Part shown: positions 830 through 20,875 of the stretch, piece by piece | Layout of the letters: each line of letters opens with the position of its first letter | How positions within the stretch are numbered: the first letter of the stretch is position 1 | From: a virus | Taxonomy: Duplodnaviria > Heunggongvirae > Uroviricota > Caudoviricetes | DNA length: 28,825 nucleotides | Strand: one strand, 5' to 3' | IMG/VR virus record: IMGVR_UViG_2698536355_000015 | Span: 1-28,825 of that record | Position numbers and translations under genes: made by a program | The notes under the pieces: model-generated | What the model was told of the DNA's origin: nothing | Database searches by the model: none | Seen by the model: the letters and a program-made list of their open reading frames with translations, nothing else

Positions 830-1234
830 TTAGGAGCGAATTTCTTTGCGAAACAAGAGGAATCTTGATGACGCCAAGTTGACAACCATACCGGCTATAC
901 TTCCAGCTGCAACACCAATGATCGGATTTTCAAGGGCTATATTATATGTTGAGATTAGCCAACTATAGAGGCCGTAGTTGACTGAACCTCCACCTAACAT
1001 GAGAACAAAGTATGAGAGAAATTCGTTTTTAGGCTTCATGCATGAGCTTTTATCTTTGAAGGTTATCTTTCTATTAAAAACCCATGTAACGGCCACTGCT
1101 GCAAAAAAGGAAAAGGCTCGAGCTATGTAAGGCCCACAGTATCCAAGCAAAATATAAAGCACTGTGGTATCTACCAGAAAACCGATAGCCCCACTAATTC
1201 CGAAGAAAAAAATCTCTCTCATGATTTTTATCAT
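830..1234 (-). CDS. gtrA: GtrA-like small polytopic membrane protein (putative lipid-linked sugar flippase)
   Basis: About 120-134 aa with four predicted hydrophobic helices, the size and topology of the GtrA family; ATGA start/stop overlap with the upstream GT2 gene; low GC. An alternative start at Met5 is possible. Confidence 0.6.
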   Translation of the reverse strand: MIKIMREIFFFGISGAIGFLVDTTVLYILLGYCGPYIARAFSFFAAVAVTWVFNRKITFKDKSSCMKPKNEFLSYFVLMLGGGSVNYGLYSWLISTYNIALENPIIGVAAGSIAGMVVNLASSRFLLFRKEIRS

Positions 1235-2184
1235 TTATTTTTTCTCATACACGGAAGAGGAATCCCAAGATAGACCAGCCGCTTCATTTCATGCCGCCCC
1301 CTAGTCACATTGTCCAAGACTAAACCACAAACGAATGATAATGCCGCAGCAATCATGATGGAAGCCGCTAAAACTGCAGTTGGGAGTCGGGGAACCAGTC
1401 CATCACGAAGATATTCAGTTAATAGCGGGAACCCCAGTAATAATGACACCATCGCCATGCTCAAAGAACAAATCCCGAAGAAGGCAAATGGGCGTTCACT
1501 TATATATAGTCGACCAATCGTCTTTAGTATTCTCCAGCCATCTCGATATGTCGACAATTTACTGACAGACCCTTCCGGGCGTGCTCCGTAGGCTGTCATT
1601 ATTTCACCATAAGGCATGCGAAGCTCCAGAGCATGCACTGTCAGCTCAGTTTCAATTTCAAAGCCATTGGAAAGCGCAGGGAAAGATTTAGCATATCTAC
1701 GCGTGAAAGCCCGGTACCCTGAAAGCATATCGGTGAAATTCCCACCAAATATTTTAACAACACTTTGGGTAAGTATATAATTACCCCATTGATGTCCGCG
1801 CCTATACGCCTCACCAGCAATTTCCTCTTTCGTTTCTCGACAGCCAACAACCATATCAAGATGGTTATCAAGTAGTTTATCTACAAGACTTCTAACAGCA
1901 CTTGCATCATAAGTTGCATCCCCATCTACCATTACGTAGATATCAGCATCAACGTCGGCAAACATGCGGCGTACAACATTTCCCTTACCAGGAAGTTGCA
2001 CAGATACCACTTTAGCACCAGCATTGGTTGCAACAAGGGCGGTGCGATCCGTCGAATTATTATCAAAAACGTAGATATCAATCTCAGGCATAGCATCGCG
2101 AAATCCACTAACTACTGCTTCGATCGCTGCTTCTTCATTATAGCAAGGAACGATTAATGCCACATGTTGTTCACGATAATACAT
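1231..2184 (-). CDS. gtrB: GT2-family polyprenol-phosphate glycosyltransferase (GtrB/ArnC-like)
   Basis: N-terminal GT2 signature (ALIVPCYNEE...FDNNSTD...VDGDATY) followed by two C-terminal transmembrane helices, about 317 aa, the architecture of GtrB-type bactoprenol glucosyltransferases. Confidence 0.8.
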   Translation of the reverse strand: MYYREQHVALIVPCYNEEAAIEAVVSGFRDAMPEIDIYVFDNNSTDRTALVATNAGAKVVSVQLPGKGNVVRRMFADVDADIYVMVDGDATYDASAVRSLVDKLLDNHLDMVVGCRETKEEIAGEAYRRGHQWGNYILTQSVVKIFGGNFTDMLSGYRAFTRRYAKSFPALSNGFEIETELTVHALELRMPYGEIMTAYGARPEGSVSKLSTYRDGWRILKTIGRLYISERPFAFFGICSLSMAMVSLLLGFPLLTEYLRDGLVPRLPTAVLAASIMIAAALSFVCGLVLDNVTRGRHEMKRLVYLGIPLPCMRKNK

Positions 2185-2200
2185 ATCAACCTCATTTAAA

Positions 2201-3514
2201 TTATTCCTTTGTTTTTATTGACAGCAAAATAAATGGAACGCTTGCCGATGTTGCTAATATTGACCAATATGCGTATCTAAAATCAGATGCAACTCCGACA
2301 AATAGGTATGCCACAAGATACAGAAAACTTGACGTATTCAAGGCAAGAAAAACATCCCTGGCGAAACACTTACGGGATAACAGTCCATAAAGTGAAAATA
2401 TAAAAGAGGTCATAAGCCAGAACCCGGGATGAAAAACGAACGTATTTTTCAATAAGTTGGTCGTCGTTTCAAGCACTCTGAACAACCCAGTTTTTTCGTA
2501 TTTTAACCCTAATGAATTTTCTACAGTAGAATCACCCAATACTGAATTTGGATGCCACAACAATTTCATAAAGTTTTCATAACGATGATTCAGGTATGCA
2601 CCAGGTTCATGATATATAGCAAAAATCCATTTTTTCATTAATGATCCATCACCCCATGAACCAGAGTTTTGTATTTTTTTTAAAACAAAACTACAAGATC
2701 CCCAAACGTAAACATCCCATGCAGCCGCATCATAACAAGTTGAAAGCATCTTATGGCCTTCATCACTATCCCAAGTTTCCTCAAAATAGTCTTTACCTGA
2801 AAAATGAGAAATTCCCCCAAGATCAAAAACTATCAACGATTGATGAACTCGGGATTTTTCAGCATTTAAAAAACCGTAATTGAAGGTTGTTGTGAATAAA
2901 ATGGAGCATGCAGGAAAAAGAAAGAGAATAATCACCCATTTTTTCCATGACTGGAATTTACTTTTATTGAAAAGCAACCATACCAATGGTAACAAACCAA
3001 ACATCGCATTAAATCTTACCATACTTCCAATAAATAGCATGACACCAGCAAGAAGCAATATTTTCTTATTCTGCCCGTTATATTTTGAAATACTTAAGCA
3101 AATAAACCCTACAGCGCAAAGCCAAATAACCGCGTGAAGAACATCCTTCCAAATGTGGCTAAGCGTACCAACTGCAAACGGCATGAAGCCAACAACAATA
3201 ACTGATAACGAAATTTTTTTATATGTTTGCGGAATAGAAAGAGATATAAGTAATAAACCGCCCCAATACAGAAAACATTCAAGCAATAGCATTCCAAATG
3301 CCCCTGGCATCCAGTCATTCGTGATAGCCCAAATGAAACTCATAATCGGTGGATGCCAATCACTGAAATTAAAACTTGTCGCTTGCTGGTATTGATCTAA
3401 CGCATCACTAGTGATTAATCCAGGGAAAAAGGCTCGCAAAGTTATTAGCAACCCAAAAGTGGCTAAGGCAACTTGAGTAAATACTGCTTTTTTACCGAGT
3501 TTTGATGTTAGCAT
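2201..3514 (-). CDS. Polytopic membrane glycosyltransferase, GtrC-like / GT-C-fold candidate (serotype-specific transferase position)
   Basis: 437 aa with many hydrophobic helices in the N-terminal two-thirds and a more polar C-terminal region; sits immediately upstream of the GtrB-like and GtrA-like genes; very low GC. Family assignment rests on context and topology, not on a recognised motif. Confidence 0.5.
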   Translation of the reverse strand: MLTSKLGKKAVFTQVALATFGLLITLRAFFPGLITSDALDQYQQATSFNFSDWHPPIMSFIWAITNDWMPGAFGMLLLECFLYWGGLLLISLSIPQTYKKISLSVIVVGFMPFAVGTLSHIWKDVLHAVIWLCAVGFICLSISKYNGQNKKILLLAGVMLFIGSMVRFNAMFGLLPLVWLLFNKSKFQSWKKWVIILFLFPACSILFTTTFNYGFLNAEKSRVHQSLIVFDLGGISHFSGKDYFEETWDSDEGHKMLSTCYDAAAWDVYVWGSCSFVLKKIQNSGSWGDGSLMKKWIFAIYHEPGAYLNHRYENFMKLLWHPNSVLGDSTVENSLGLKYEKTGLFRVLETTTNLLKNTFVFHPGFWLMTSFIFSLYGLLSRKCFARDVFLALNTSSFLYLVAYLFVGVASDFRYAYWSILATSASVPFILLSIKTKE

Positions 3515-3690
3515 TGAATCATCTAATCTTGAGGAGTGTCATGGGGTTAATACTGTGAATTCTCCCACATGAGATATATTCAGGCAAGCATTTCGATCAG
3601 GGATTTCCTTACAGCAAGAAGCCATTGATGTGGGGATAGCGACGGCGGAGTGGAGAAATACCAAGTGCTGCTAATACGCGTTGATACCTC

Positions 3691-3709
3691 AAAAGCCGCG
3701 CGAAGCGGC
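3691..3709 (-). terminator. Rho-independent terminator downstream of tfa (end of late operon)
   Basis: Minus-strand sense GCCGC-TTCGC-GCGGC hairpin followed by TTTT, 6 nt after the tfa stop codon. Confidence 0.55.
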
Positions 3710-3715
3710 CCCTTG

Positions 3716-4129
3716 TTACGGTTGCGGAGGCCAGTTAACGTCCGGCGCGGTGCTGGTATTTGTAGCCGTCACCGCATCGATATAGTCCAGTGTGGCATTA
3801 ATCTGTTCCGTCTCAGACGTGGTGAGTTTGCGCCCCGCCTGGAGCTTCAACTGAACAACGCTGATTGACTGCATCGCCACATCAATCAGTGCCCGCCGCT
3901 GCAGTTCGGCCTGCGCTACGAGTTGCTCGTGCGACAGTTCCGGCACGGGGACGATAGTCACCATTCCATCATTATCAACAGTAAAGGTTTCGCCTGGCTG
4001 GCGGCTCATCGCTTTGCTGAACTCCTCAGCGGATACGTTGATTGCGCCCTCCGGGATTTGACGGTACTCCTCATTACTCGGGTAAAACAGACCGCCGGAA
4101 AACCAGTAAATAATATTATCCATACTCAT
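3716..4129 (-). CDS. tfa: Tail fibre assembly protein (Tfa)
   Basis: C-terminus ...TSTAPDVNWPPQP matches the conserved Tfa C-terminus (E. coli TfaE ...TSTAPDIEWPAVP); located directly after the tail fibre gene. Track ORF extends to 4177; the start chosen here is the internal Met (MSMDNII...) that avoids a 44-nt overlap. Confidence 0.8.
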   Translation of the reverse strand: MSMDNIIYWFSGGLFYPSNEEYRQIPEGAINVSAEEFSKAMSRQPGETFTVDNDGMVTIVPVPELSHEQLVAQAELQRRALIDVAMQSISVVQLKLQAGRKLTTSETEQINATLDYIDAVTATNTSTAPDVNWPPQP

Positions 4130-4929: not shown

Positions 4930-5523
4930 TTATGCGTAACTGAAAATAAGACGCAGATGCGAGGGCGCAATTTTAGTGATCGCGCACTCGAGTTGTTTAT
5001 TTCCCCAGGAGGCCAGGGAATCACCACAGTAAGATGCACCTGACAGTGCGTATTTGATGGTGGTTTGCGGGGCGTTAATCTGCCAGGTAAAAGGCCACTC
5101 ATCGCCGTTCAGGGCATCGCCGCACGCCGACATACCGCACATCGCGGGGCGAAACTGTGTGATGGTGATGGTATACCCCAGCGCCGCCGCCACGCGGATG
5201 TAGTAATCGCGGTTCAGGCCGCCGGTACTGATGAGCTTTGCCACCACCATGCGCTGGCGATCGCTGACCCCGTCGATTTCACCGATAGCGCAGTCATCCG
5301 GCAGACCAAGCGTCGCCTCCCATTCCGGAAGCATACTGGTCGCAGTGGGCGGAAATGCCCCGGCAATGAGATTTATCGCGTCGTCATCCGAACGCTGGAA
5401 TGCACTTCCCAGGGCGCGCAGAACCGCCGCCTGAACTGTTTTTGACGCCCGTGGCCACGCCCTGCCGGTGGGCAGCAGCGCCCCCAGCGCGCCAGCGTAA
5501 TCATCTTTCGAAAAGAGGCTCAT
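4930..5523 (-). CDS. Mu gp48-like tail/baseplate protein (YmfQ-like)
   Basis: 197 aa, downstream of the J-like baseplate gene; size and position match Mu gp48-type proteins. Confidence 0.55.
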   Translation of the reverse strand: MSLFSKDDYAGALGALLPTGRAWPRASKTVQAAVLRALGSAFQRSDDDAINLIAGAFPPTATSMLPEWEATLGLPDDCAIGEIDGVSDRQRMVVAKLISTGGLNRDYYIRVAAALGYTITITQFRPAMCGMSACGDALNGDEWPFTWQINAPQTTIKYALSGASYCGDSLASWGNKQLECAITKIAPSHLRLIFSYA

Positions 5524-6662
5524 ACAAAATGTACCTCACCCAGCACCGGAATTTCACCCACCGCAAACGTAATATTGGCCGTCGGAGAGTTCAGGATATA
5601 GCCCGTGGTGCCGTTAACATCACCGATGCTCCCGTTGATATCCGAGAGATACACTTTCCCGGAGCCGTCAGGATTGGCCTCATCAAAAAACAGCGTTGTC
5701 AGTGCGTCCCTGATGCCCTGTACCGTGGTGGTGTCGGCATTTTTTATCCCCGCAATTTCGACGTCGATGGTCTTCGGGATTGGGGAACACACAAACACGA
5801 TGGCTGTGTCAGTCTGCAACGGGTAAATGTGATCGGCGACAGCCAGCTGGTCCCCGGTGGCCCTGACAGCCCCCCAGTCTTCCAGTTGCGATATTCCGTC
5901 GGTACCTACCGGAAACCCGCCGCTGGCGTTCTGGTCACACATGATGTACACCCCGACGGTCCCGGCCCCGTTCAGGCGACGTTTTACCCACGCCCGGGTC
6001 ACGCCAGGTACCTCGAGCGCCCATTTTTTATAATCGGTATCGCTGCCGCCCTGTGGCGGATTCTGCCACGCCAGCAGGCCACGGCTGCGAAACTCGTCTT
6101 CGCTTTCAATGTCCGCCCCGCCGGTCGCGGCAGACAGCAGCGTCACCTGCGCATCCACCCCGGCAATATTGGCATCCAGTGTCAGAAGGGTCCCGGCATC
6201 CGCATTACCGCGGGCACCGCCCCCGGTCACATCGCTGGTAATATCCGGCAGTATGGCGGTCACGGCAGCAGTACCATAGCCATTCGCCTGAATTTTCAGC
6301 TCAGCATCCGTGCGATACTGATACCCGTCGCCACGGTTCAGGATCGTACCCGGCGGAATGATGCTGTCAGCGGCGCCGGAGGCCTGTGCCGATGGCGATT
6401 TCGCGGCCGTGGCCGGTTTGCGAAAAACCTGCTTCATGGCCATCCATCCTGCCTGGAACTCATCGGTAGACGTGAACGGGTTCGTCTGCAGGGCAATATA
6501 GTCCAGGTAGGCGTAGTGCAGATGCCCCATCCCGGCATCCATATCGGCGAGCACTTTCAGGTTAGCGAAGCGCAGCAGCGCGCCGACTCCCTCCAGCTCC
6601 GCTTGCATAAACTTCCGGTTTCCGTCACGCAGCTCGCTGAGCGTCGGTCGTTTAAACGGCAT
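5520..6662 (-). CDS. Baseplate J-like protein (Mu gp47-like)
   Basis: 380 aa; size and position after the gp25-like gene; 4-nt overlaps with neighbours indicate translational coupling. Confidence 0.65.
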   Translation of the reverse strand: MPFKRPTLSELRDGNRKFMQAELEGVGALLRFANLKVLADMDAGMGHLHYAYLDYIALQTNPFTSTDEFQAGWMAMKQVFRKPATAAKSPSAQASGAADSIIPPGTILNRGDGYQYRTDAELKIQANGYGTAAVTAILPDITSDVTGGGARGNADAGTLLTLDANIAGVDAQVTLLSAATGGADIESEDEFRSRGLLAWQNPPQGGSDTDYKKWALEVPGVTRAWVKRRLNGAGTVGVYIMCDQNASGGFPVGTDGISQLEDWGAVRATGDQLAVADHIYPLQTDTAIVFVCSPIPKTIDVEIAGIKNADTTTVQGIRDALTTLFFDEANPDGSGKVYLSDINGSIGDVNGTTGYILNSPTANITFAVGEIPVLGEVHFV

Positions 6663-6663
6663 A

Positions 6664-7101
6664 TTAATGTTGCTCCCATATCCAGTAAAACCTGAATTCC
6701 TGCCAGTCTTTGCCCGGTGCCAGATACCGGATGATGAGGTTCAGGCGGTTCGGCATAACGATCTGCGCAACAGGGATAACATCGCTGACCACGCCATCAT
6801 CCTTAAGCCAGGCAAGAGCCTCGCGCGCATATTCCTCCGCTCTTTTCGCCACGTCGGTCGTCAGTTTCTGCCTCCGGAGTAACCACAACCGTGACCCGAG
6901 CTGCGATTCATCACCAGAATCCCCCCACCAGCCACGGCGATCGCTGCCTTCATAGTCGTCATCCGCGCGCGCCAGCCGGTCGGTAAACAGGCTGTCCAGT
7001 ATCGCGGTCTGTAAATCGTACCCGGTGGTGAGTGCACCCGGGCCTTCCTGCCAGTCGGCAACCATCTCGTCCACGTTCCAGAAAGAGGCAATGTCGCTCA
7101 T
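6664..7101 (-). CDS. Baseplate wedge protein, gp25/GPW-like (Mu gp46-like)
   Basis: 145 aa; size and synteny between the V-like and J-like genes. Confidence 0.6.
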   Translation of the reverse strand: MSDIASFWNVDEMVADWQEGPGALTTGYDLQTAILDSLFTDRLARADDDYEGSDRRGWWGDSGDESQLGSRLWLLRRQKLTTDVAKRAEEYAREALAWLKDDGVVSDVIPVAQIVMPNRLNLIIRYLAPGKDWQEFRFYWIWEQH

Positions 7102-10714: not shown

Positions 10715-12529
10715 TTAATAATTCATGGCGGTGGCTATTCTGCCATTATCCTCAACGTTATAAGTTTTTTTCTCTCCCTTATCATTTACCAGAGTTATCT
10801 CCAACTTTAACTTTTGATCAGACATTGCCTCTTTCAGGGATCGGGCAAGATTGTCTGCCATAGCATTACCTACTCCACTAGGTGAACCAGTGATAATTGA
10901 AGTTCCCGGTCCATTGTCAGTACCAGAGGAATGATAGATACTTTGTTCTGTAAAGTTACTTTCTTGTTGGCCTTCATTATTGATTATCCTCTGGTAATGT
11001 CCCAGAACGGCCCCAGGATAGGCCTGATTTTGCTGTCCCCACCGACTGGTATCGTAACCACCGTTGTAATAGCGGAGCGCCAGCGGAACATTTCCGCCGG
11101 ACCTTTTCAGGTTCTCAGATAAGATTTGTGCCCCAGCCATAATGTTCTGCCGCGGATCGGTCCAGTCCGTTATCCCGGTCGACCGGAAATTTGACGGCAT
11201 AATCTGCATTAACCCTCGGGCGTCAGCACTACTAACTGCATATGGATTCCCGTTAGACTCCTGGGTCATTATGGCCTTCAGCAGGCGGGGATCCACACCA
11301 TATTGCTTGCCGGCTTCATTGAGTAGATCGTCATACTGTCCGCCCTGGTTATACGGTACATAGTTATTGCCGCCGACAGCAGGTCGGGTAATGGCAGCCA
11401 TATCGTCCTGCAGCTGGTTCGCCGTATCCGTCGCCCGGTAATTCGCATCGTAGCGTTTGCTCACAGCATCCGTCATAAACCCGGCATCCACCATCCCGCG
11501 CTCGCTGCGGGGCAGGCTGTTATAGAGTTCCTTGTCACCCTGAATACGGCGCAGTTTGGCCGCGTCCGCGCTGCTGATAAACCCCAGCGCATGCGACAGG
11601 CCGGTGAAATCGCCGTTGGTAAACAGGTCTGTCACGCCCTCGAGGCCGTCTTTCACCGACCCGTCGGAAAGCAGGCCTTTGAACAGCTTATTCTGCGATC
11701 GTTGCTTCAGTCCGTCCCATGAGGCGCCCAGTTCGTTCATCGTGCCGTTGATATCGGACAGTTGTTTATTAAGTTCGGGATCGACCGTCAGCCCGAACGT
11801 ATCGGATTTTGCCAGCAGGGTTTTCATGCGTTCACCTTCACGCATCAGCGCCAGCATTTCAGGGGTAAAACCCATCGCATCCGCGACAGATTTTTGCTGC
11901 TCGGGTCGCAACGTCGGGAACACACGCGCGATCTCTTCCATGGTTTTGAGCGTATCGACTGAACCATCCTTGTTTTTCTGGATCTGCACACCAATCTGCG
12001 ATAACGCGCCAAGTACCTGACCGTTTGCCCCGCTGGCCGCTTCCTTCAGCGTTTTTGCCATCCCTTCAATCGATGCATTTGCGCTTTCGCTGTCAGCCCC
12101 CAGAATACGCATGGCGCCAGCGAGCCTGGTAAAGTCATCAACCCGCATACCGGCGTTTTTCGATGCTGTATCCAGGTTGTACGCCTCCCGGGATGCTTCC
12201 CGAAAACCGTAGGCAACCTGCTGAAGGCCATATCCTGCTGCCCCAACAGCACCGAGCGCGCCCAGCTTGCCGGAGATTTCCCCCACCATTTTTAGCGGGG
12301 GAACCATATCACCGATGAACTGCACGTTATCCCGCGCGCTCTTCGACATATTCTCCAGGCGTGAAATAAAACCGTTCAGCCCGTCGACCGTCTCCTGGCC
12401 CCCTAACTGGAGCCCTTCTTTGGTTTTATTCAGCTTCGGCTCAAGATCGCGGATAGCTTCATCAATCCGGGTTATCGCGTCACTGACCTGATCGCTGGCC
12501 ACCAGCTCAAAATCAAAAGAATTACTCAT
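10715..12529 (-). CDS. Tail tape measure protein with lytic transglycosylase (SLT) domain
   Basis: 604 aa, largely Ala/Gly/Leu-rich and helical, directly downstream of the frameshifted chaperone pair; contains a family-1 lytic transglycosylase motif (...AIMTQESNGNPYAVSSADARGLMQIMPSNF...). Confidence 0.75.
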   Translation of the reverse strand: MSNSFDFELVASDQVSDAITRIDEAIRDLEPKLNKTKEGLQLGGQETVDGLNGFISRLENMSKSARDNVQFIGDMVPPLKMVGEISGKLGALGAVGAAGYGLQQVAYGFREASREAYNLDTASKNAGMRVDDFTRLAGAMRILGADSESANASIEGMAKTLKEAASGANGQVLGALSQIGVQIQKNKDGSVDTLKTMEEIARVFPTLRPEQQKSVADAMGFTPEMLALMREGERMKTLLAKSDTFGLTVDPELNKQLSDINGTMNELGASWDGLKQRSQNKLFKGLLSDGSVKDGLEGVTDLFTNGDFTGLSHALGFISSADAAKLRRIQGDKELYNSLPRSERGMVDAGFMTDAVSKRYDANYRATDTANQLQDDMAAITRPAVGGNNYVPYNQGGQYDDLLNEAGKQYGVDPRLLKAIMTQESNGNPYAVSSADARGLMQIMPSNFRSTGITDWTDPRQNIMAGAQILSENLKRSGGNVPLALRYYNGGYDTSRWGQQNQAYPGAVLGHYQRIINNEGQQESNFTEQSIYHSSGTDNGPGTSIITGSPSGVGNAMADNLARSLKEAMSDQKLKLEITLVNDKGEKKTYNVEDNGRIATAMNY

Positions 12530-16235: not shown

Positions 16236-17285
16236 TCACACCACCGTTGCACAAAGGGACGCGTTTACCCGGCTTGGAATAACCAGCGGGGAAGATTGCA
16301 TCAGGATAAGACGCTGGGCAGGATCTTCTTTCACCCATGATTTTGGTGCATAGGCCAGCGGGCCGTAGTTGAATGCGGGATCCATAATCACGCCAAATGC
16401 GCGGGTACCCATCAGGTCAGCACCACTCATAATGACAGCCCCATCGGGGATCATGGGCTTCTCGATGTTATCAAGCGGGTCAATAAACCAGTCGTTATAT
16501 AACCAGAGGTCAAAGTTACCCCAGCGCCCTTTATAGATGGCACCCTTCATCACCTGCGGGCCAGCGTTAATCTGGTTACCAAACGGGCTCAGCGCCGGGA
16601 AGGTGATGGCGTTGTCCTTGATGGTGGTATCCAGGCGGAATGCACGCCATGACTTGCTCGTGAAAACCAGATCAGTCGCGACAGAACCGGACTCTTTCAG
16701 GAAAAGAGTCTGCCAGACTTCGATATCATCTGATGGTTGAGTGTTAGTGGTGCCGGATGCAACCGTCAGCGGCCATTTATCAGAACCACTGAGAGTAATA
16801 GTGAGATCTGAAGAGCGTCCGAAATCCACCACTTTGGTTTCATAGCCTTCCCCGGTAACTGTAACGGTACCGGACACCAACGCGCTGGCCGCCATCCATT
16901 CAAGACGACGGTTGATCATGTCAATCTGATCAGTCATCTCAAACTGCAGGTTCAACATTTCACGCTCTGCTGCTGTGTACTCTCCACCAATACGCTCACC
17001 AATCTGGCGACGAATCGGTTTGCGTAGGTCCGGCGCTCGCTTATCTTTGATGTAAGCCGGTTTGAAGGTATTGGTCTGGTATTTACGGGATTCGACCAGC
17101 TTACCTTCCACCAGTGGGGAGACGAACGGCGCCATACGACGCAGGCCGACATCAACATCAATCGCTACTTCTTCAGTCTCGTAAGTCACAACATTCGGAA
17201 AGAAGCGATCAAGCAGCCAGTTCTGACTGGTTTTCAGGTTAGGAACGACCTGCACCAGCACACTGGTTTCATAAATATTATCCAT
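16236..17285 (-). CDS. Major capsid protein (lambda gpE family)
   Basis: 349 aa versus lambda gpE 341 aa; follows the gpD-like gene as in lambda. Confidence 0.8.
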   Translation of the reverse strand: MDNIYETSVLVQVVPNLKTSQNWLLDRFFPNVVTYETEEVAIDVDVGLRRMAPFVSPLVEGKLVESRKYQTNTFKPAYIKDKRAPDLRKPIRRQIGERIGGEYTAAEREMLNLQFEMTDQIDMINRRLEWMAASALVSGTVTVTGEGYETKVVDFGRSSDLTITLSGSDKWPLTVASGTTNTQPSDDIEVWQTLFLKESGSVATDLVFTSKSWRAFRLDTTIKDNAITFPALSPFGNQINAGPQVMKGAIYKGRWGNFDLWLYNDWFIDPLDNIEKPMIPDGAVIMSGADLMGTRAFGVIMDPAFNYGPLAYAPKSWVKEDPAQRLILMQSSPLVIPSRVNASLCATVV

Positions 17286-17390: not shown

Positions 17391-17792
17391 TCAGGAAACG
17401 GGTGCCTGAATACTGTCGCGCAGGAAAATCGCCAGCGGGCGCAGGGCGGTTTTCATATCCGCAAGGGTCCAGGAGGCATCGAGGGTAATACGGTTCTGGT
17501 TAAACTCGCCCATCAGGTAAACACCACCGGACTGATCGCCGTGCGTGGCCGCCTGAACATCGTCGACCAGGATAGCGCAGGGTTTTTCGCTACCGTCAGC
17601 AGCCGTTTTAACACAGGCGGTATATTTCCCGCTTGCCGAAATCATGCCAAGCACAGTGCCACGTTTATAGTCTCCGCCAGTAACAGTCACCGTATCAGTG
17701 ATGAGCTGCAACGGACCCGCAATAAGCTGATCCGGTACAAACAGCGAGCTTTTCATACCCGGCGCAAACGGGTTCTGACCAAACTGATCCAT
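17391..17792 (-). CDS. Head decoration protein (lambda gpD-like)
   Basis: 133 aa between the scaffold and major capsid genes, as gpD in lambda. Confidence 0.7.
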   Translation of the reverse strand: MDQFGQNPFAPGMKSSLFVPDQLIAGPLQLITDTVTVTGGDYKRGTVLGMISASGKYTACVKTAADGSEKPCAILVDDVQAATHGDQSGGVYLMGEFNQNRITLDASWTLADMKTALRPLAIFLRDSIQAPVS

Positions 17793-18370
17793 TATTTTTC
17801 CCCTTTTACAGAGTTGTAGAGGCTGGTCATCTTGCCCACCAGCGCAGATTTACCAGTCTGTTTTTCACCGTCCGGGTTCAGGCGCGCCTGGTGACTGGCC
17901 TGCATACGTTCATCCAGAGAACGACCGCGCTTAGGCTGCGATGCCGGCGCCTGCGAAGCCATGACGTTGATGGCTGCAGCAGAGCTCATGCCGGTATAAA
18001 AAGCGAGCGATGCGGCAAGCGCTGGGTTGGCGGCAGCATGCGGGCTACCGAAGATACGGGCGCAGCGCTTACGCTCTGAAATACAAGCCTGGCGGCCAGA
18101 CTTACTTTCTTTTCGGTCATCGCCATCATCGTCTTCAGCGTCCGGATCGTCTTCATCATCCTCTGCATCCGGATCGTCATCTTCGGCGCTTTTATCACGG
18201 TCATCGTCTTCCGCATCATCATCGCGCTCATCGTCTTCAGCATCGTCCTCGCGGTCATCTTCTTCCGCTTTACGTGCCTTCGATTTTTTGGTTTTTTTAT
18301 CTTCATCTTCTTCTGATGCCGATTTTCCAAAACCCAGCAGGTGAGCAAAACTCATCGTTTTCTTTGCCAT
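17792..18370 (-). CDS. Putative head scaffolding protein with acidic low-complexity repeat (Nu3 position)
   Basis: 192 aa between the protease and gpD-like genes; contains an Asp/Glu-rich repeat region of about 70 aa (EDDREDDAEDDERDDDAEDDDRD...). Confidence 0.5.
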   Translation of the reverse strand: MAKKTMSFAHLLGFGKSASEEDEDKKTKKSKARKAEEDDREDDAEDDERDDDAEDDDRDKSAEDDDPDAEDDEDDPDAEDDDGDDRKESKSGRQACISERKRCARIFGSPHAAANPALAASLAFYTGMSSAAAINVMASQAPASQPKRGRSLDERMQASHQARLNPDGEKQTGKSALVGKMTSLYNSVKGEK

Positions 18371-18371
18371 A

Positions 18372-19241
18372 TCAGGCTCCTGTTACTTGAAGTAAATGTC
18401 TGAACGCAGCATCAGGAGGGCATACCTCATCCGCCAGTCCAAGCTCCACACCATCAGCCGCCATAAAACAGGCCGCCTGCGTATTTTTGATAATTTTTGC
18501 GCTGATCCCGCGGTTACGGGCAACGGTATTCACGAACAGCTCCCCCATGGTGTTGATGTCATGCTGTATGGCCGCCAGCGCCTCTTCTGACAACTCACGA
18601 TACGGAGAGCCCTCCGCCTTCCGGCTGCCGAAAGTAATGATGGTGACCTTCAGACCGTCCTCTTTAATGCGCTGCGTCCAGTCAAGGTGCATGGTGATGA
18701 CGCCCACCGACCCCACGCCGCCGGTGCGGGGAACCGAAATCCGGTCAGCCGCGCTGGCGATGGCGTACGCAGCTGAATACGCGCTTTCCGTCAGAATGGC
18801 GTGGACAGGTTTTTCGCCGCGGGCGTTGTAGATTTCGTCCACAAGGTCGAAACACCCCGCCACTTCCCCGCCCGGTGAATCGATATCCAGACAGATACCC
18901 TTCACATCCGGGTCGGCCAGCGCGGACAAAAACGCCTGGCGGATACCGTCATAGCCCGTCATGCCACTGTACGGCCGCAGGCTGCCGAGCTTTTGAACCA
19001 GGGTTCCGCAGATGGAGATGACCGCAACACCCGCCACATTGTCATAGCCGGGGTCGCGCCGGGTTTCCCGCCCGCGGTTGTCGTCGTAGCCGTACCCGTC
19101 GTCATCTTCCATCGCCAGTGAGGTTTCAATTCTGGAGATACCGAACCGGTCCATGACGGCTGCCATGATGACTTCAGCTTTGTTCGGGTGGATGGCCAGC
19201 GGCGTGTTAAACAGGCGCTGGGCCAGATGAGGTAGATTCAC
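18372..19241 (-). CDS. Head maturation protease, S49 (SppA/ClpP-like) family (lambda gpC-like)
   Basis: 289 aa immediately downstream of the portal gene with a 4-nt overlap; S49-type fold inferred from sequence character and the lambda gpC position. Confidence 0.75.
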   Translation of the reverse strand: MNLPHLAQRLFNTPLAIHPNKAEVIMAAVMDRFGISRIETSLAMEDDDGYGYDDNRGRETRRDPGYDNVAGVAVISICGTLVQKLGSLRPYSGMTGYDGIRQAFLSALADPDVKGICLDIDSPGGEVAGCFDLVDEIYNARGEKPVHAILTESAYSAAYAIASAADRISVPRTGGVGSVGVITMHLDWTQRIKEDGLKVTIITFGSRKAEGSPYRELSEEALAAIQHDINTMGELFVNTVARNRGISAKIIKNTQAACFMAADGVELGLADEVCPPDAAFRHLLQVTGA

Positions 19242-20875
19242 TTTTCCTCCGGGTCTTTAATCGTTTCGGGGGCAAATACATCAGCCTGCGCCCAGCTGGG
19301 TAGCGGCAGCCCGCGTTTCTTACAGGCATCAATTTCACGCTGGCGCTGATCGAGCACTTCTTCCCAGTCTTCACCGACGTTCTCACCCACCTCAATTTCG
19401 AGGGTGGAAAGCCCGGCATCCAGGCCAAGAATGGCGCCTTTCTTCTCTGCAACCGGATCCACCCAGCCGCGGCCCGGCCCCATCCAGCGCGCGCGGGAAT
19501 AGGCTGCTCTGGCGTCAACAAAATCCGGTGCGCCGGCAGGCAGGGGTAAATCCTCGTTGTCGTGCACTTCCTCGGCAAAAGCGGTCACCACAGGTTGTGC
19601 GGTTCCCATGGCGAAATCGTCGCGGCGCCGGGTCAGCGTCTTCCAGGCCTCCAGCAGCGAAGAGCGCGCGGAGCTGTAGTTAACGTCAGACCAGTCCTGG
19701 GTGACCTGCTGCGGCGATAAGCCGGTACCGGAGGAGAAATTGCGCAGCACGGCAGACTCGAACACCTCGAAGTTGCTGTAGGGCCGCGCCGCATTGACCG
19801 TGGTGATTTTTTCTCCGGGGTAAAGAATGGGCATACGGGCTCCGTTCTGCAGCGTCAGGCGCCGGTCAGTATGAAATTCGACACGCCCGTCCTGATAAGC
19901 ACCCAGCTCGGATTCGTCATAGTTTTCACCCAACGCCGACTGCACCATCGCAGGGTCATAGGGTGACTCGATATAGGCTGCAAAAATGGCGTTGAGAATA
20001 GCGGCCTCGAGCTCACTCTGGTCGTACTTCACCAGCATTTTCAGGCGCTGGACCACCGGCGTCAGAATGCCGTTTCCGCGATGCTGCGCACCGCGCTCAT
20101 GGTCAAAGTCATGTACCACATGCGGGCGTCCCCATGCCGTCTCGCGCGGGATACGCTGCCAGGTCATGGTTTTGGCCCCGCTCCACCAGTCACCGATATG
20201 GGCTTCCCGGATGTGGTAGGCCACCGGCGCACCGTCGGCGTCAATCTCCACGCCGCCACGGATATGCGGCATATCGAAATTCTGCTGCGGATTGCTGAGG
20301 CGATCAGGATCGACAACCTGCACCGTGGTGGCATAGCGCCCCCGACCTCGCCCCAGCCGGTCCGTCCGGTACTGGAGCACCAGCAGCGCATCACCATCGA
20401 TTAACTTATGGCGAAATGCCAGCCGCAGCATCTGAGGAACCGTCAGCTTGCGCTCGGCATCGCAGTAGCGCCCGGGGTCATATGCCCAGGTTCGCCAGTG
20501 CGCCTCCAGTGCCTTGCCATACTCTTCAGCCCACGTGGCATCGAATGACGGGTTCCCGGTCATCATCCTGAGTACCCGGTGATCCGGTTTCATAATGGGG
20601 CGGAAGTTTGCACCGACAGCATTGTCCAGCAGGCGGGTCACCGCACCGTTAGCCCAGCCATCGTTACGGACCAGATCCCGCGCGCGGGAAACAATCCGGT
20701 CCCGGTAGATGTTGATTTCGTTATCCGGCGACCAGAGCGCCGGCTGCCAGTTCGCCAGCTGGTCACTGAACGAATCCGCCGCGTCATAGGGCACGCGGCT
20801 GCCGCCCACCAGCATCGAGGGCCGCGCCGGGCGTACCGGCTGACCATCCGGCCCCAGTATCTGTACTTTATTCAT
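19238..20875 (-). CDS. Portal protein (lambda gpB family)
   Basis: 545 aa versus lambda gpB 533 aa; shared segment DLVRNDGWANGAV versus lambda DLVRNNGYAANAI; lies between the gpW-like and protease genes. Confidence 0.85.
   Translation of the reverse strand: MNKVQILGPDGQPVRPARPSMLVGGSRVPYDAADSFSDQLANWQPALWSPDNEINIYRDRIVSRARDLVRNDGWANGAVTRLLDNAVGANFRPIMKPDHRVLRMMTGNPSFDATWAEEYGKALEAHWRTWAYDPGRYCDAERKLTVPQMLRLAFRHKLIDGDALLVLQYRTDRLGRGRGRYATTVQVVDPDRLSNPQQNFDMPHIRGGVEIDADGAPVAYHIREAHIGDWWSGAKTMTWQRIPRETAWGRPHVVHDFDHERGAQHRGNGILTPVVQRLKMLVKYDQSELEAAILNAIFAAYIESPYDPAMVQSALGENYDESELGAYQDGRVEFHTDRRLTLQNGARMPILYPGEKITTVNAARPYSNFEVFESAVLRNFSSGTGLSPQQVTQDWSDVNYSSARSSLLEAWKTLTRRRDDFAMGTAQPVVTAFAEEVHDNEDLPLPAGAPDFVDARAAYSRARWMGPGRGWVDPVAEKKGAILGLDAGLSTLEIEVGENVGEDWEEVLDQRQREIDACKKRGLPLPSWAQADVFAPETIKDPEEK

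Follow-up and report, generated by a model that had tools for sequence, protein, structure and literature searches.

The DNA analysed here, a 28,825-nt stretch of a Caudoviricetes virus (IMG/VR record IMGVR_UViG_2698536355_000015) that we call the window, carries a lambda-type head module on its minus strand. In same-strand order, a lambda-family portal protein (19238–20875; PF05136, 1.3e-100) is followed by a 289-aa S49, lambda gpC-like prohead protease (18372–19241; PF01343, 3.9e-28), a 192-aa ORF (17792–18370), a lambda gpD-like head decoration protein (17391–17792; PF02924, 2.8e-20) and a lambda gpE-like major capsid protein (16236–17285; PF03864, 4.8e-59), which puts the 192-aa ORF in scaffold position. 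The protease is 36% identical to residues 7–283 of lambda gpC (E 3e-58). Since these lambda-type head genes occur together with sheath, tape-measure and baseplate genes, which along with terminase and lysis genes make up the remaining window, the element is a myovirus prophage with a lambda-type head, similar to phiNP and BZS1. The same gene is present at the same place in Citrobacter phage phiNP and Serratia phage BZS1. Elsewhere in the window, a region at 830–3514 (minus strand) contains a GtrB-like O-antigen conversion gene (1231–2184; phrog_841, E 3e-13) downstream of the tail-fibre assembly gene, flanked by 437-aa and 134-aa ORFs that both lack a PHROG match; this region is probably a serotype-conversion moron cassette. 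The tape-measure protein (10715–12529, minus strand) has a lytic transglycosylase-like region at about residues 390–530.

The 192-aa ORF, a predicted Nu3-type head scaffolding protein gene according to the ORF list and a match to PHROG 6382, starts with ATG (18368–18370) 1 nt downstream of the protease stop TGA (18372–18374) and in a different frame. A Shine-Dalgarno sequence, AGGAG (18377–18381, minus strand), lies 6 nt 5′ of this ATG within the last protease codons, and the scaffold stop TAA (17792–17794) overlaps the ATG of the decoration gene as TAATG. This arrangement differs from that in lambda, where translation of Nu3 begins internally in gene C and Nu3 has its C-terminus in common with the protease, whereas the window has a scaffold gene of its own, read in a different frame from the protease, preceded by its own Shine-Dalgarno sequence and not nested in frame. 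A programmed +1 frameshift at GCC-TGA-T, giving a protease–scaffold fusion comparable to lambda C/Nu3, was also weighed and rejected, because a slippery codon is missing, the scaffold frame contains a TAA four codons upstream of the ATG, and AGGAG can be explained as the scaffold's own ribosome-binding site. Two apparent fusions in relatives were likewise set aside. One (P0010), a 306-aa protease–scaffold fusion on a 1.1-kb Logan contig (L004; SRR12298395_150, 139–1059), is most likely a frameshift error, because the called ORF is not in the frame in which the protease stop TGA is read, and was left unused; the other, a 431-codon stop-to-stop frame in L143, is spurious, belonging to a GC-rich genome in which the protease ends separately. 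The window protease stops after its protease domain, without the Nu3-like C-terminal extension present in lambda gpC.

Along the 192 residues of the encoded protein, net charge changes in blocks, in the order +3, -5, +7, -33, +11. The N-terminal segment, conserved in the family alignment (residues 1–18, MAKKTMSFAHLLGFGKSA, including FSFAHLLGFG; 18317–18370, minus strand), has a net charge of +3 and is followed by a mixed-charge segment kept in the alignment (residues 19–35; 18266–18316, minus strand), in which SEEDED (residues 19–24, net -5) precedes KKTKKSKARKA (net +7). The polyacidic core (residues 36–85; 18116–18265, minus strand), delimited by composition, AlphaFold2 and alignment indels, has a net charge of -33, with 37 D/E, 6 A and 4 K/R in 50 residues, while the next most acidic 50-aa stretch among all open frames of at least 90 codons in the window contains 14 D/E. 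D/E-dominated low complexity combined with predicted disorder makes this core a polyacidic intrinsically disordered region. The remainder of the protein (residues 86–192; 17795–18115, minus strand) is a basic domain (net +11, pI 10.4) that profile homology and AlphaFold2 delimit and that is predicted to be helical.

The DNA encoding the core is itself repetitive. TRF detects two imperfect 27-nt tandem arrays, one at 18119–18185 with 2.5 copies and 77% matches, encoding DDPDAEDDE-type 9-aa units, and one at 18194–18268 with 2.8 copies and 83% matches, encoding DDAEDDERD-type 9-aa units. Allowing at most two mismatches, the 13-mer unit CATCGTCTTCAGC occurs five times within 18127–18268, two copies being exact, and nine times across the window as a whole, where chance would give 0.77; a count of nine was not attained in any of 100 shuffles. 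The Asp/Glu repeat tract and the repetitive coding DNA reported in a preliminary description of the locus are thus both borne out. Its extent, given there as about 70 residues that are almost entirely D/E/A, is overstated: the pure core measures 50 aa, and the 67-aa span of residues 19–85 includes the basic KKTKKSKARKA. The same segment had been called GC-rich, which it is not: GC content is 54% in the tract against 53% in the gene and 53% in the window, and 150-nt windows over 18100–18400 range from 41 to 51%, below the 55–65% of their neighbours. What stands out in the composition of the tract is the 69% purine content of its coding strand.

Over its entire length, the protein matches phrog_6382 (E 7.2e-66, residues 1–192 on profile positions 1–200 of 201), a PHROG annotated as "unknown function", and all 885 homologues of the protein are named "hypothetical". 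Pairwise BLASTP of the protein against lambda Nu3 gave no significant match (E 0.13). Using hhalign, a profile of 50 diverse family members aligned with lambda Nu3 at 88% probability (E 3.2e-6, 72 columns), covering Nu3 residues 42–113, and, reciprocally, Nu3 matched phrog_6382 (E 5e-5). With the acidic tract removed, the C-terminal domain matched phrog_17040 (7e-7) and phrog_53 (1e-5), both annotated as "head maturation protease", in the part of each profile to which lambda Nu3 also aligns. These profile comparisons indicate that the basic C-terminal half, which carries an ERKRCARIF...LAASLAF..GMSS motif, is a homologue of the lambda Nu3 scaffolding domain, and we call it a remote one because pairwise BLASTP was not significant. 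Together with the order portal, protease, ORF, decoration protein and capsid protein, this remote homology supports the scaffold position assigned to the protein in the preliminary description.

AlphaFold2 predicts no secondary structure in residues 1–89, with pLDDT below 50 over most of residues 14–84, and places helices of moderate confidence at residues 90–107, 110–126, 130–140, 152–159 and 174–189. Overall, the model has an elongated shape and low confidence (mean pLDDT 60), and a Foldseek search with it against BFVD and PDB returned no match at E ≤ 0.001. A profile search of PDB sequences gave compositional matches only, for example to prunin and Toc34. Matches to Nop14, Mpp10 and CDC45 in Pfam and to a sigma factor in NCBIfam lie on the acidic tract, far below cut-offs, and were discarded as compositional artefacts.

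The likeness to lambda Nu3 comprises the head-module context (lambda-type portal, S49 protease, gpD-like and gpE-like proteins), the homologous C-terminal helical domain, and a disordered, net-negative region that precedes this domain in both proteins. The two proteins differ in how strongly their charges are separated: the N-terminal part of Nu3 is rich in Ser, Thr, Ala and Gln with a net charge of -5, and its C-terminal domain is near neutral, compared with -33 and +11 in the window protein, which also has an F-A-H-L motif that lambda Nu3 lacks. The PHROG 6382 proteins of phiNP (WOZ57184.1) and BZS1 (p06) have the same neighbours and the same three-part layout as the window protein, from which they differ solely in the length and sequence of the charged tract; that of BZS1 p06 contains a duplicated KEKGKKAKSRRAEE block. 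Mass spectrometry of BZS1 virions has identified 13 proteins, including the decoration protein p07 and the capsid protein p08 (PMC7556043). The homologue p06 is absent from these 13 proteins, as are the portal p04 and the protease p05 (PMC7556043). The absence of p06 fits a scaffold as negative evidence only, in that an Asp/Glu-rich protein gives few tryptic peptides. Our literature search found no paper on the PHROG 6382-type protein family, and the sequence evidence leads us to predict that this unannotated protein is a previously undescribed family member of a known, Nu3-type kind of scaffold.

To place the tract in the context of its family, we compared relatives of the gene. Megablast of the protease-to-decoration stretch gave no match among 50,697 phage records and just three partial matches of 75% identity in E. 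coli complete genomes; therefore, close DNA relatives were taken from protein searches. In tblastn, two distant representatives found just phiNP and BZS1, or nothing, among the phage records. Scanning with the basic C-terminal domain alone in HMMER yielded 216 cluster representatives, and among the matches listed with a length of 150–300 aa, 122 of 131 representatives reach 15 or more D/E in their best 30-aa window. A portal gene and an S49 protease gene lie immediately upstream in every one of the 64 genome loci inspected, from alpha-, beta- and gamma-proteobacteria, and in 62 of the 64 the protein runs from FAHL through a net-negative charged tract to a Nu3-like domain. Because this layout and acidity recur across proteobacterial representatives and genome loci, the charged tract is a module that characterises the family and no accident of this one locus. 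The repeats that build the tract are lineage-specific, with ESDEDYAKRMEE in beta-proteobacteria, DDSGKGKKGKRA in Paraburkholderia and DPDADPNA in Acidocella; L085, L088, L098, L103, L127, L146 and other loci also have their own repeats at this position, and many tracts of other lineages alternate acidic and basic blocks instead of being purely acidic.

The F-A-H-L motif (F8–L11; 18338–18349, minus strand) marks the N-terminal end of this layout. Residues F8, H10, L11, G13 and G15 are invariant across the close family alignment, and among the matches listed, "FAHL" is found in 100 of 131 diverse representatives and F.H[LM] in 114 of 131. Its conservation exceeds that of everything else outside the Nu3-like domain, and the motif may serve as a peptide for docking. 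The N-terminus of the window protease (NLPHLAQRLF) and lambda gpC (NLPHIASMAF) each contain an x-H-L/I segment that resembles it vaguely.

Sequence comparison within the close family shows that variation is concentrated in the tract. In 106 close homologues the acidic core ranges from 37 to 52 aa, while the distance from FAHL to the start of the core is 24 aa in 103 and the C-terminal part measures 96–98 aa in 105; all gaps of the family alignment are confined to the acidic tract. One metagenomic copy (L003), which comes from a short-read assembly (ERZ28566148), is 100% identical to the window at the DNA level except for a 75-nt in-frame deletion in the tract that removes 25 residues. Its endpoints in the alignment coincide with two copies of an 11-nt direct repeat, TCATCGTCTTC (GAAGACGATGA on the coding strand), the promoter-distal copy at 18126–18136 and a second one 75 nt away at 18201–18211, and both ends fall in copies of the CATCGTCTTCAGC unit. 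The deletion thus carries what looks like the signature of slippage or of recombination between repeats. As for the half-length tract that results, the full length may be non-essential, the copy may be defective, or the assembly may be in error. A different kind of change is seen in two IMG/VR prophages (L081 and L079, gene at about 3501–4079), whose scaffold-gene flanks are 97.6% identical in DNA while their tracts are wholly different, one built of Glu-rich EEEEEETA 8-aa repeats and the other of Asp-rich DDAEDDERD-type units, which suggests cassette-like replacement or very fast turnover. The expectation that the tract would vary in length by slippage therefore agrees with what its relatives show, namely variable tracts between constant flanks and a deletion bounded by repeats, and the comparison of repeat lengths that had been proposed finds them anything but invariant. 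We rejected the idea of a phase-variable, simple-sequence contingency locus, in view of the 27-nt period and the fact that every length variant, the 75-nt deletion included, is in frame.

While sequence and length vary, net charge does so far less. The tract carries between -26 and -37 in the 106 close homologues, with a mean of -32 and a standard deviation of 2. Across 109 representatives, the charge of the tract is anticorrelated with that of the C-terminal domain (Spearman -0.53, p 4e-9, uncorrected for phylogeny), and the total charge stays near a mean of -12. Across proteobacterial prophages, then, the presence of the tract and its net charge are conserved and its sequence is not. The narrow charge spread and the anticorrelation are compatible with an electrostatic role of the tract, whether towards the capsid, as the preliminary description suggested, or towards another partner.

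In the explanation that we consider probable, this ORF supplies a phiNP/BZS1-like temperate myovirus with its head scaffolding protein, a stand-alone counterpart of Nu3 with a polyanionic spacer maintained for its charge. The protein would consist of three modules, a short F-A-H-L motif, a charged disordered spacer and a basic helical Nu3-like domain. By analogy with the helix-loop-helix of P22 gp8, the basic domain may bind the inner face of the capsid protein or self-associate. Previous work on P22 has shown that gp8 is anchored to the shell by R293 and K296, which pair with acidic residues of the coat N-arm (PMC9965877). We use P22 gp8, with its basic C-terminal helical element and long flexible regions upstream, as a working analogy only: no sequence or fold relationship to the window protein was detected, and P22 has no maturation protease, its gp8 being recycled and lacking a polyacidic tract. 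The spacer, for its part, would project into the procapsid lumen, keep the scaffold soluble and net negative, offset the basic domain and keep nucleic acid off it, and help to expel the scaffold or its fragments after S49 protease cleavage and DNA entry. The 27-nt repeats would make the tract mutable through slippage or recombination, while selection would hold its net charge near -32 in this lineage. Other phages also have assembly proteins of high acidity, such as gp9 of T7 and gp22 and gp68 of T4, which are removed or broken down either ahead of DNA packaging or in its course; Pfam, PHROG and PDB searches of the window protein found no homology to these.

The variability of the tract could also be read as indifference to charge, with the tract a tolerated low-complexity linker whose repeats drift neutrally and for which any flexible spacer would suffice. 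The unconserved sequence, with repeats peculiar to each lineage (ESDEDYAKRMEE, DDSGKGKKGKRA, DPDADPNA), the exchange of a whole Asp-rich for a Glu-rich tract between the near-identical genes of L081 and L079, and the natural variant L003 that lacks 25 residues are all in line with this view. Drift alone, however, would not be expected to give a net-negative tract in 62 of 64 loci from three proteobacterial classes or an Asp/Glu-rich one in 122 of the 131 listed representatives, nor to hold net charge at -32 ± 2 in the close family or yield an anticorrelation with the charge of the C-terminal domain, and we regard a charge-indifferent linker as unlikely. That charge matters is common ground with a further possibility, in which the chief function of the tract is to fold back and mask the basic Nu3-like domain (+11) and the KKxKK patches of the same molecule, blocking premature self-association or non-specific nucleic-acid binding until the capsid protein is met. 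Acidic tails regulate basic DNA-binding domains in this manner in, for example, HMGB1. The succession of charge blocks (+3, -5, +7, -33, +11) and the tract/C-domain anticorrelation in 109 representatives would suit such a mask, as would lambda Nu3, which pairs a near-neutral C-terminal domain (-2) with a weakly acidic N-terminal part (-5). Against it, the AlphaFold2 model shows no confident contact between tract and C-terminal domain, and the tract would do more than neutralise, because total charge stays clearly negative (mean -12). Masking overlaps with the charge-maintained spacer that we favour and does not exclude it; as the main function of the tract, we consider it distinctly improbable.

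Two other readings would change the identity of the gene product itself. DNA mimics such as Ocr and ArdA are typically extremely acidic, and for a gene located in the head module packaging is conceivable. On this reading the protein would not be a scaffold but a DNA mimic or an acidic internal protein of the head, packaged and then injected together with the DNA, for instance against restriction. We think this highly unlikely, considering that the C-terminal domain is homologous to Nu3, that no Pfam DNA-mimic family matches at E ≤ 0.01, that the tract is predicted to be disordered and not a folded, DNA-like surface, that the gene sits in the late head operon whereas a mimic of this kind would be marked by early expression, and that BZS1 p06 is not among the virion proteins (PMC7556043). 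The chance that the coding strand is the other one, or that a second gene overlaps here, is negligible. On the plus strand, 18027–18344 does hold a 105-codon open frame with a TTG start that encodes a Ser-rich sequence, already taken for an artefact in the preliminary description. It spans just the repeat region and parts of its flanks and is an automatic product of reading GAT, GAC and GAA codons in reverse; conservation in the family, also in the non-repetitive N- and C-terminal parts, follows the minus-strand frame throughout, and Glu-rich variants of the tract would alter the antisense reading. We thus treat the Ser-rich frame as a by-product of Asp/Glu codons and not as a gene. A 431-codon open frame at 5400–6695 on the plus strand, antisense to a baseplate wedge gene (5520–6662, minus strand) with strong PHROG support, is probably a shadow ORF.

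More speculatively, and with only a small likelihood in our estimate, PHROG 6382 and its relatives could form a distinct class of stand-alone scaffolds, in which an F-A-H-L docking motif, possibly for protease or portal, is joined to a polyanionic "DNA surrogate" and a basic Nu3-like domain, and in which the charge of the tract co-evolves with the domain and drives scaffold expulsion. If this were true, repeat-driven turnover of the tract would provide a means of tuning how heads assemble. Current views of phage head assembly are not overturned by the charge-maintained scaffold that we propose, which attaches a predicted name, Nu3-type scaffold, to the PHROG 6382 family, which counts 885 close homologues and, among proteobacterial prophages, 216 or more diverged clusters. 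Since phiNP and BZS1 are culturable, the part that scaffold charge may play in procapsid assembly and scaffold exit is directly testable. The family would also offer a clean natural case of a disordered region that is kept for its charge and not for its sequence, built on repeats that yield in-frame length variants.
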